A stretch of 64,000 nt of DNA. It comes from Escherichia phage JEP6. Made by a program: the position numbers and the translations under genes. The stretch lies in sequence record MT764206.1. The stretch is one strand, 5' to 3'. Within the stretch, counting starts at the first letter, position 1. Each line of letters begins with the position of its first letter. Positions 58,645 through 58,955 of the stretch are shown here, one piece after another. The notes under the pieces are model-generated. The model did not search any database and was not told where the DNA came from. It saw nothing but the letters and a program-made list of their open reading frames with translations.

Positions 58645-58754
58645 TATATTCTCTCATTTATTGCAGCAAAAATGAATTATACAGTTCTTCATCATATGTA
58701 TTTGATAGTAATACTAACACGTTTTGCGATAAATATTAATTTAAAGGAGGACAT

Positions 58755-58955
58755 ATGGTACAAAAATTAATGGCACTTGTTAATGCCATCAAAGGTAATA
58801 AAAAGCGTATAGCTTTTACTATTTCTGCTATGATAGGAATTTTACTTTGGAATTTTGTTTTATCGCCAGTTGCTATTGCTCATGGCGTTAGTATTCCAGT
58901 AGTTACTCTTGATACATTCGTAGATTTAGCATTTGCTTTAGTTGGGTTAATTTAA
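58755..58955 (+). CDS. small two-helix membrane protein on opposite strand
   Basis: 66-aa ORF; AAAGGAGG 5 nt upstream of ATG; stop overlaps gene 61 stop (convergent). Confidence 0.5.
   Translation: MVQKLMALVNAIKGNKKRIAFTISAMIGILLWNFVLSPVAIAHGVSIPVVTLDTFVDLAFALVGLI

Follow-up and report, generated by a model that had tools for sequence, protein, structure and literature searches.

Within a 64,000-nt stretch of Escherichia phage JEP6 (record MT764206.1), hereafter the window, a 66-codon open reading frame (ORF) with an ATG start and a TAA stop occupies positions 58755-58955 of the plus strand in the ORF list, between the minus-strand genes dam (57865-58644) and gene 61, the primase gene (58952-59980). 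This ORF is a genuine conserved protein-coding gene of the T-even-type phages. The best overall explanation for the locus, and one that we regard as likely correct, is that of a conserved T-even gene which was missed by the reference T4 annotation and which, although embedded in an early region, is expressed late in infection. Computation establishes coding selection on the frame, its synteny, the conservation of a promoter box ahead of it, and the hydrophobic architecture of its product. On the basis of the ORF itself, its conservation and its family match, we describe the coding sequence as that of a 66-aa small membrane protein of the PHROG 2024 family and an ortholog of RB69ORF029w.

The ORF between dam and gene 61 as a conserved coding sequence

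The window is a segment of a Tequatrovirus (T4-like) genome whose best DNA match is 98.6% identical over 58400-59200, and the boundaries of dam and gene 61 follow the annotation of near-identical phage records. Gene 56 (57286-57819) is another minus-strand neighbor, and 61.1 and 61.2 are further minus-strand genes alongside gene 61. The gap between dam and gene 61 measures 307 bp, and its plus strand holds the 66-aa ORF. A preliminary description of this DNA, prepared from the letters and the ORF list, had reported an ORF here on the strand opposite to its neighbors, with a strong Shine-Dalgarno sequence and a stop codon overlapping that of gene 61 in convergent orientation within TTTAAA. Each of these elements is present in the sequence: the Shine-Dalgarno AAAGGAGG lies at 58743-58750 (+), 4 nt ahead of the ATG, and the TAA stop of the ORF (58953-58955, +) and the reverse-strand stop of gene 61 (58952-58954) together span the TTAA at 58952-58955 on both strands. 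The same description stated that no minus-strand ORF occupies the interval, and indeed none of at least 25 aa is found in 58645-58951, yet the minus strand is not empty, as it carries the terminator-like hairpin at 58792-58767 discussed further below. On the plus strand, a 32-codon ORF (58672-58770) shares sequence with the promoter and Shine-Dalgarno region ahead of the 66-aa gene; this shorter ORF is probably not a gene, because much of its sequence sits in a stretch that T2-type phages replace.

Conservation of the frame among relatives, which the preliminary description had proposed as a check, was borne out by a tblastn search with the 66-aa protein, which matched 692 phage records, 685 of them over 80% or more of its length. 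Identity to the window protein amounts to 86-100% in T4, T2 and T6, 54% in Mosigvirus (RB69ORF029w) and 48% in Gaprivervirus (VR7ORF033w), and two metagenomic lineages share 68% and 52%. A distant branch of the family, with 20-27% identity to the window protein, is represented by a second tandem copy in Gaprivervirus, and by the sole copy in Dhakavirus, Marfavirus, Gelderlandvirus, Kanagawavirus, Moonvirus and a Klebsiella phage, and it is found at the same locus. The tandem paralogs of Gaprivervirus (VR7 and UPEC01) are located at 1495-1692 and 1701-1901 of the extracted loci L004/L005, and the second copy is unannotated in VR7; no paralog of the 66-aa protein exists within the window.

Members of the family are 63-74 aa long and belong to PHROG 2024, a family of unassigned function that was matched by all 12 of the diverse members compared; for the window protein, residues 2-66 align with profile positions 1-65 of 65 (E = 8.1e-31). 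An exhaustive profile search with a narrow alignment yielded just 6 clusters at 50% identity, and the subfamily is therefore narrowly distributed; by exhaustive profile search, the family is confined to T4-like phages of enterobacteria. A word-indexed search with a broad alignment retrieved 122 proteins at E <= 0.001, among which the informative names all read 'hypothetical'. Some small-ORF records carry the odd labels 'DNA packaging ATPase', 'dCTP pyrophosphatase', 'Holin' or 'putative head morphogenesis protein'. The first three look like annotation slips, and the family and structure searches gave no support for the packaging ATPase, dCTP pyrophosphatase or head morphogenesis labels. Searches of Pfam, NCBIfam and PADLOC returned no meaningful match for the 66-aa protein, a profile search of the PDB returned only weak transmembrane-helix noise, and a Foldseek comparison of the AlphaFold2 model with viral structures recovered only the protein's own family. 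At the RNA level, an Rfam scan of 58300-59300 gave only chance snoRNA matches.

The amino-acid sequence is what selection preserves at this locus. Estimates of dN/dS (Nei-Gojobori) are 0.10-0.20 in Tequatrovirus, 0.10 in Mosigvirus, 0.30 in Gaprivervirus and ~0.32 between genera, where synonymous sites are saturated and dN/dS is nonetheless low. Differences between genera are distributed over the three codon positions as 31/12/42, 34/10/39 and 33/12/40, with second positions varying least, and the copy in OE5505 has sustained an in-frame deletion of 3 codons. Because it is conserved with a coding-type substitution pattern, the ORF is far beyond what chance would produce. The copy in ECCR664 (L006, about 1450-1650) shows a frameshift in an A-run, which is probably an assembly error.

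These data bear directly on the possibility that the frame is a chance ORF, conserved merely through signals acting on the minus strand such as a gene 61 terminator or a promoter for dam or gene 56. Minus-strand signals do occur in the region, and short ORFs are frequent in AT-rich T4 DNA; however, the codon periodicity, the in-frame indel and a frame that remains open across many genera at 20-54% identity all argue against it, the start codon, Shine-Dalgarno and promoter box are kept while the minus-strand neighbors change, and the minus-strand hairpin is lineage-specific. A chance ORF has already failed the tests run here, and we give it next to no credence.

Our preferred reading of the ORF as a conserved gene is also that to which its genomic setting points. 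The ORF invariably faces the 3' end of the primase gene in convergent orientation, in no fewer than eight named T4-like genera plus three unclassified lineages. What lies on its opposite side differs: dam in T4 and the window, a minus-strand gene of ~180 aa in T2 and OE5505, gene 56 in RB69, VR7 and QL01, and other small ORFs in Marfa, CIP9 and Merlin. The extra T2-type gene, which is hypothetical and sits between dam and the small ORF, was located in T2 (L003, 1759-2304), OE5505 (L007, 841-1401) and fPS-65 (L019, 541-1101). When the T2 and T4 arrangements are aligned, homology sets in precisely at GATAAATA, the octamer ahead of the ORF, and the promoter box is therefore part of the gene cassette. 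A GGAGG or GGAG Shine-Dalgarno is likewise present upstream of the ORF in 12 of 12 lineages.

Predicted membrane topology and comparison with holins and toxin peptides

Hydropathy analysis of the window protein with 19-residue Kyte-Doolittle windows gave peaks of 2.0 for residues 19-42 and 1.86 for residues 45-66, and the AlphaFold2 model (mean pLDDT 75.5) contains helices at residues 2-13, 16-42 and 52-63. From the first of these helices and its charge, residues 2-18 (58758-58808, +) are predicted to form a cytoplasmic N-terminal amphipathic helix that ends in KGNKKR. Residues 19-42 (58809-58880, +) constitute the conserved transmembrane helix according to hydropathy, AlphaFold2 and alignment, whereas the alignment and hydropathy of residues 43-66 (58881-58952, +) are those of a loop (HG..P.V) followed by a short C-terminal helix that is both acidic and hydrophobic, with a predicted periplasmic or interfacial location. 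Five residues are invariant, W32, N33 and P38 within the transmembrane helix and G44 and P48 beyond it, and position 53 is acidic. Over 12 members, net charge ranges from +2 to +7 on the N-terminal side and from 0 to -2 on the C-terminal side. The segment corresponding to residues 19-42 is strongly hydrophobic in all members; the C-tail that follows the conserved Pro comprises 16-28 residues of variable hydrophobicity. A transmembrane segment at residues 21-41 was predicted earlier for RB69ORF029w (Nolan 2006). On inspection, LMALVNAIK is the one convenient tryptic peptide of the window protein, a single hydrophobic peptide of 48 residues making up the rest, so that a failure to see the protein by shotgun mass spectrometry would say nothing against it.

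The preliminary description had envisaged a membrane protein with two hydrophobic helices. Both segments are hydrophobic in the window protein, but only the first is conserved as a transmembrane helix across the family; the Tequatrovirus C-tail is simply hydrophobic enough to resemble a second one. At the level of the family, the modeled topology would thus comprise one transmembrane helix, an N-terminus on the cytoplasmic side and a short periplasmic C-tail. The more general proposal of a small membrane-protein gene opposite the surrounding early genes gains support from the coding selection and from the conserved hydrophobic segment. Because an Asn and a Pro are conserved within the transmembrane helix, the segment may further serve in oligomerisation or in docking onto a partner, as its composition suggests.

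Class II holins and pinholins, among them the small S68 protein of phage 21 whose features we used for comparison, resemble the 66-aa protein in being ~65-70 aa long, hydrophobic and expected late. A late role in permeabilising the inner membrane, as a holin, a pinholin or some other lysis effector, would accord with the small size (63-74 aa), hydrophobicity and predicted late expression of the family, and with the two hydrophobic segments of the Tequatrovirus members, which are reminiscent of class II holins. Unlike these holins, however, the 66-aa protein lacks a charged C-terminal domain, a conserved second transmembrane helix, a lysis cassette and a family match. At least one transmembrane domain is expected of a holin, and residues 19-42 supply a conserved one, the second segment being present in some lineages only. 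A charged, hydrophilic C-terminal domain is also expected, but the net charge there is 0 to -2, there is no basic tail, and the protein ends in ...FALVGLI. The gene resides among early replication genes with no endolysin or spanin gene beside it, and no holin family in Pfam or PHROGs was matched. One UniProt entry (OE5505) is named 'Holin', but this is a single automatic name, and the other cluster members examined are 'hypothetical'. T4, moreover, already has a holin, T. We have not filed the protein as a holin because it has no charged C-terminal tail and is not encoded in a lysis cassette, and we consider such a function improbable.

Type I toxin-antitoxin systems such as those of Hok and TisB also encode small, hydrophobic peptides, and their coding regions are covered by transcription from the opposite strand. 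The 66-aa protein is similarly small and hydrophobic, and opposite-strand transcription over its coding region is predicted here. In contrast to the type I systems, the ORF shows no sign of a dedicated antisense RNA gene or promoter, and the coverage would come from gene 61 read-through that is not conserved. The only minus-strand elements at the ORF are the gene 61 terminator-like hairpin and candidate promoters for the next gene, and these are not conserved across lineages.

Late promoter candidate and predicted transcription from the opposing strand

Upstream of the ORF, a T4-type (gp55) late-promoter box, GATAAATA, is predicted at 58728-58735 (+) from sequence and conservation. It is intergenic, located 19 nt before the ATG, and departs from TATAAATA at one position only, -13, which is a known variable position of the T4 late promoter (PMC2988020, PMC1524935); T4 late genes carry a TATAAATA-type box close to the gene, about 6 nt ahead of the transcript start. 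Of the 12 lineages compared, 11 have a TAAATA core between positions -28 and -18 relative to the ATG, where local motif frequencies would predict 0.21. Apart from this core and the Shine-Dalgarno, the upstream regions of the 12 lineages have little in common, and the flanks of the box diverge. Marfa and CIP9 possess a perfect TATAAATA box, and the L015 lineage has only TATTAATA. Octamers of the NATAAATA type are depleted in the window, with 16 found (6 + 10) compared with ~37 expected (~9 + 27); the separate counts are 6 vs 9.3 expected for TATAAATA and 10 vs 27.3 +/- 4.8 expected for VATAAATA. In view of this depletion, a chance occurrence upstream of the ORF is unlikely, and the depletion itself fits selection against stray late promoters.

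Late-promoter boxes of T4 extend from -13 to -6 relative to the transcription start (PMC1524935). From this published position, the late start is predicted at about 58741 (58739-58743, +), which would leave a leader of ~14 nt. On the T4 genome (NC_000866), the box corresponds to 17709-17716, the predicted start to about 17722 and the ATG to 17738. The early and middle transcripts of T4 all have the opposite polarity to the ORF, and either strand is used by late transcription only (PMC2988020). Because the box is conserved and the plus strand is used only late, the ORF is probably switched on late in infection. In the description of RB69ORF029w as a novel ORF, no late promoter was predicted upstream (Nolan 2006), and we found no late-promoter assignment for PHROG 2024 members in the literature searched.

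A precedent for a late box amid early genes is available within the window. A TATAAATA box at 57136-57143 (-) is positioned just upstream of soc (56868-57104), which in T4 is, like the ORF, a small gene with a late box near its start, surrounded by early genes and only 1.7 kb away. The two genes differ: soc shares the strand of the early genes and its product is a soluble protein that decorates the capsid, whereas the ORF runs the other way and codes for a membrane protein, and the sequences of Soc and the 66-aa protein are not similar.

In lineages where gene 56 directly adjoins the ORF, a minus-strand, MotA-box-like GCTT abuts the late box; such a motif is placed next to the box in RB69, and a similar one in QL01, VR7/UPEC01 and L017. 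For RB69 gene 56, a middle promoter, Pm:16038, was predicted (Nolan 2006); it maps to about 2432-2472 of L002 (record positions 15998-16038, -), back-to-back with and partly overlapping the plus-strand AATAAATA box. Judged from the sequence, the RB69-type arrangement of GCTT and box would make a compact divergent pair of middle and late promoters. Because of the abutting GCTT in gene 56-flanked lineages, part of the A/T conservation of the box could serve the other strand; lineages without a gene 56 neighbor keep the box too.

The minus strand carries the terminator-like hairpin at 58757-58792 (-; stem 58792-58767), with 11 pairs, a 4-nt loop, a UUUUUG tail and a folding z of -3.1. It falls within ORF codons 5-13, with its U-tail reaching codon 1, and is located downstream of gene 61, for which it looks like a terminator. 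The annotation of Yersinia phage fPS-65 lists the same hairpin as a terminator; it was found only in Tequatrovirus. As it lies inside the ORF, gene 61 transcripts would be antisense to most of the ORF. The plus-strand mRNA, too, folds into this hairpin (58767-58792), directly behind its start codon. In the other direction, the window contains no canonical plus-strand terminator after the ORF, and late transcripts therefore probably enter gene 61 in antisense. A long hairpin (58991-59044, CAACCCCUG...CAGGGGUUG) is situated in the part of gene 61 coding for its C-terminus, in a region with a z of -4.1, and is present in T4, UPEC01, CIP9, L017 and RB69 and absent from QL01, Marfa and Merlin. As a conserved plus-strand terminator this hairpin was rejected, since no consensus structure emerged over 9 lineages.

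The preliminary description had raised antisense interplay with the 3' end of the primase gene as a candidate role. In its strongest form, the locus would act principally at the RNA level, either by late plus-strand transcription in antisense into gene 61 or by gene 61 read-through over the ORF, so as to tune the expression of the primase or of the ORF, with the peptide secondary. The convergent genes with their overlapping stops and the lack of a canonical plus-strand terminator past the ORF in the window are compatible with such an arrangement, as are the minus-strand terminator within the ORF, by virtue of which gene 61 transcripts would cover ~190 nt in antisense, and the fact that T4 transcribes both strands of some sites at different times (PMC2988020). 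However, selection acts on the protein, with low dN/dS and synonymous sites saturated between genera, and the geometry of the two stops varies across lineages from a 19-nt gap to a 14-nt overlap, so that the overlap is not conserved. In Gaprivervirus a second paralog is inserted between the ORF and the primase gene. Between the convergent genes of L015 and K65 stands a GC hairpin, which could block read-through, although a U-run follows it in L015 only, and the minus-strand hairpin itself is restricted to Tequatrovirus. A primarily RNA-level locus is accordingly very improbable in our estimation, and antisense interplay as a conserved function is not supported, given the variable geometry, the intervening hairpins and paralog, and the selection on amino acids; antisense effects are possible side-effects and not what selection maintains.

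Proposed role and significance

For the reading that we prefer, a late-expressed membrane-protein gene, the sequence features suggest the following course of events. Once replication is under way, RNA polymerase loaded with gp55, gp33 and gp45 would initiate at the GATAAATA box (58728-58735) and produce a short-leader mRNA, starting near 58741, with a strong Shine-Dalgarno. The 66-aa product would enter the inner membrane with its basic, N-terminal amphipathic helix in the cytoplasm, one transmembrane segment (residues 19-42) and a short acidic C-tail in the periplasm; the invariant Asn and Pro of the helix may mediate self-association or docking onto another membrane protein. Our best guess as to function, which is speculative and weakly supported, is that of a non-essential late envelope accessory contributing, for instance, to the timing or inhibition of lysis or to membrane integrity; we know of no classical r or lysis mutant that maps at the ORF. 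A bolder version, to which we give a small chance, is that the protein is an unrecognised late membrane component, either a modulator of T/RI lysis inhibition or a small viroporin-like oligomer, missed by genetics and possibly antisense-gated. On this view, classical genetics would have overlooked a very small gene that is dispensable under laboratory conditions and missing from the reference annotation, and antisense pairing with gene 61 read-through could further gate its expression.

The preliminary description did not recognise the ORF as a named T4 gene, and this holds in part: it is unnamed in T4, whose reference record AF158101.6 has no feature at this position, but it is already annotated as hypothetical in hundreds of T4-like genomes, for instance as RB69ORF029w, VR7ORF033w and RB32 ORF030w, and an identical protein sequence is annotated in vB_EcoM_F1 and vB_EcoM_G8. 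We found nothing usable in the literature by way of a T4 name, Ribo-seq data or transcription start sites for the ORF. The window protein and the entries PHROG 2024, RB69ORF029w, VR7ORF033w and RB32 ORF030w share the same length, the position convergent to gene 61 and the WN...P...G...P motif, with no structural difference. The gene is therefore already catalogued, as a hypothetical protein and as PHROG 2024, but it is missing from the T4 reference annotation.

This is an ordinary uncharacterised small phage gene and not a new kind of system, and the value of the finding lies in an annotation correction and a target for knock-out. A gene under purifying selection, retained at one position in at least eight named genera and predicted to encode a late membrane protein, nevertheless has neither a T4 name nor a Pfam family. 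T4 is the reference for a very large group of phages, and gaps in its annotation are inherited by the tools derived from it, which include knock-down libraries, expression atlases, proteomics databases and T4-seeded Pfam families. Entering the gene in the T4 list and knocking it out would cost little, and could reveal a component so far missing from the late envelope events of these phages.
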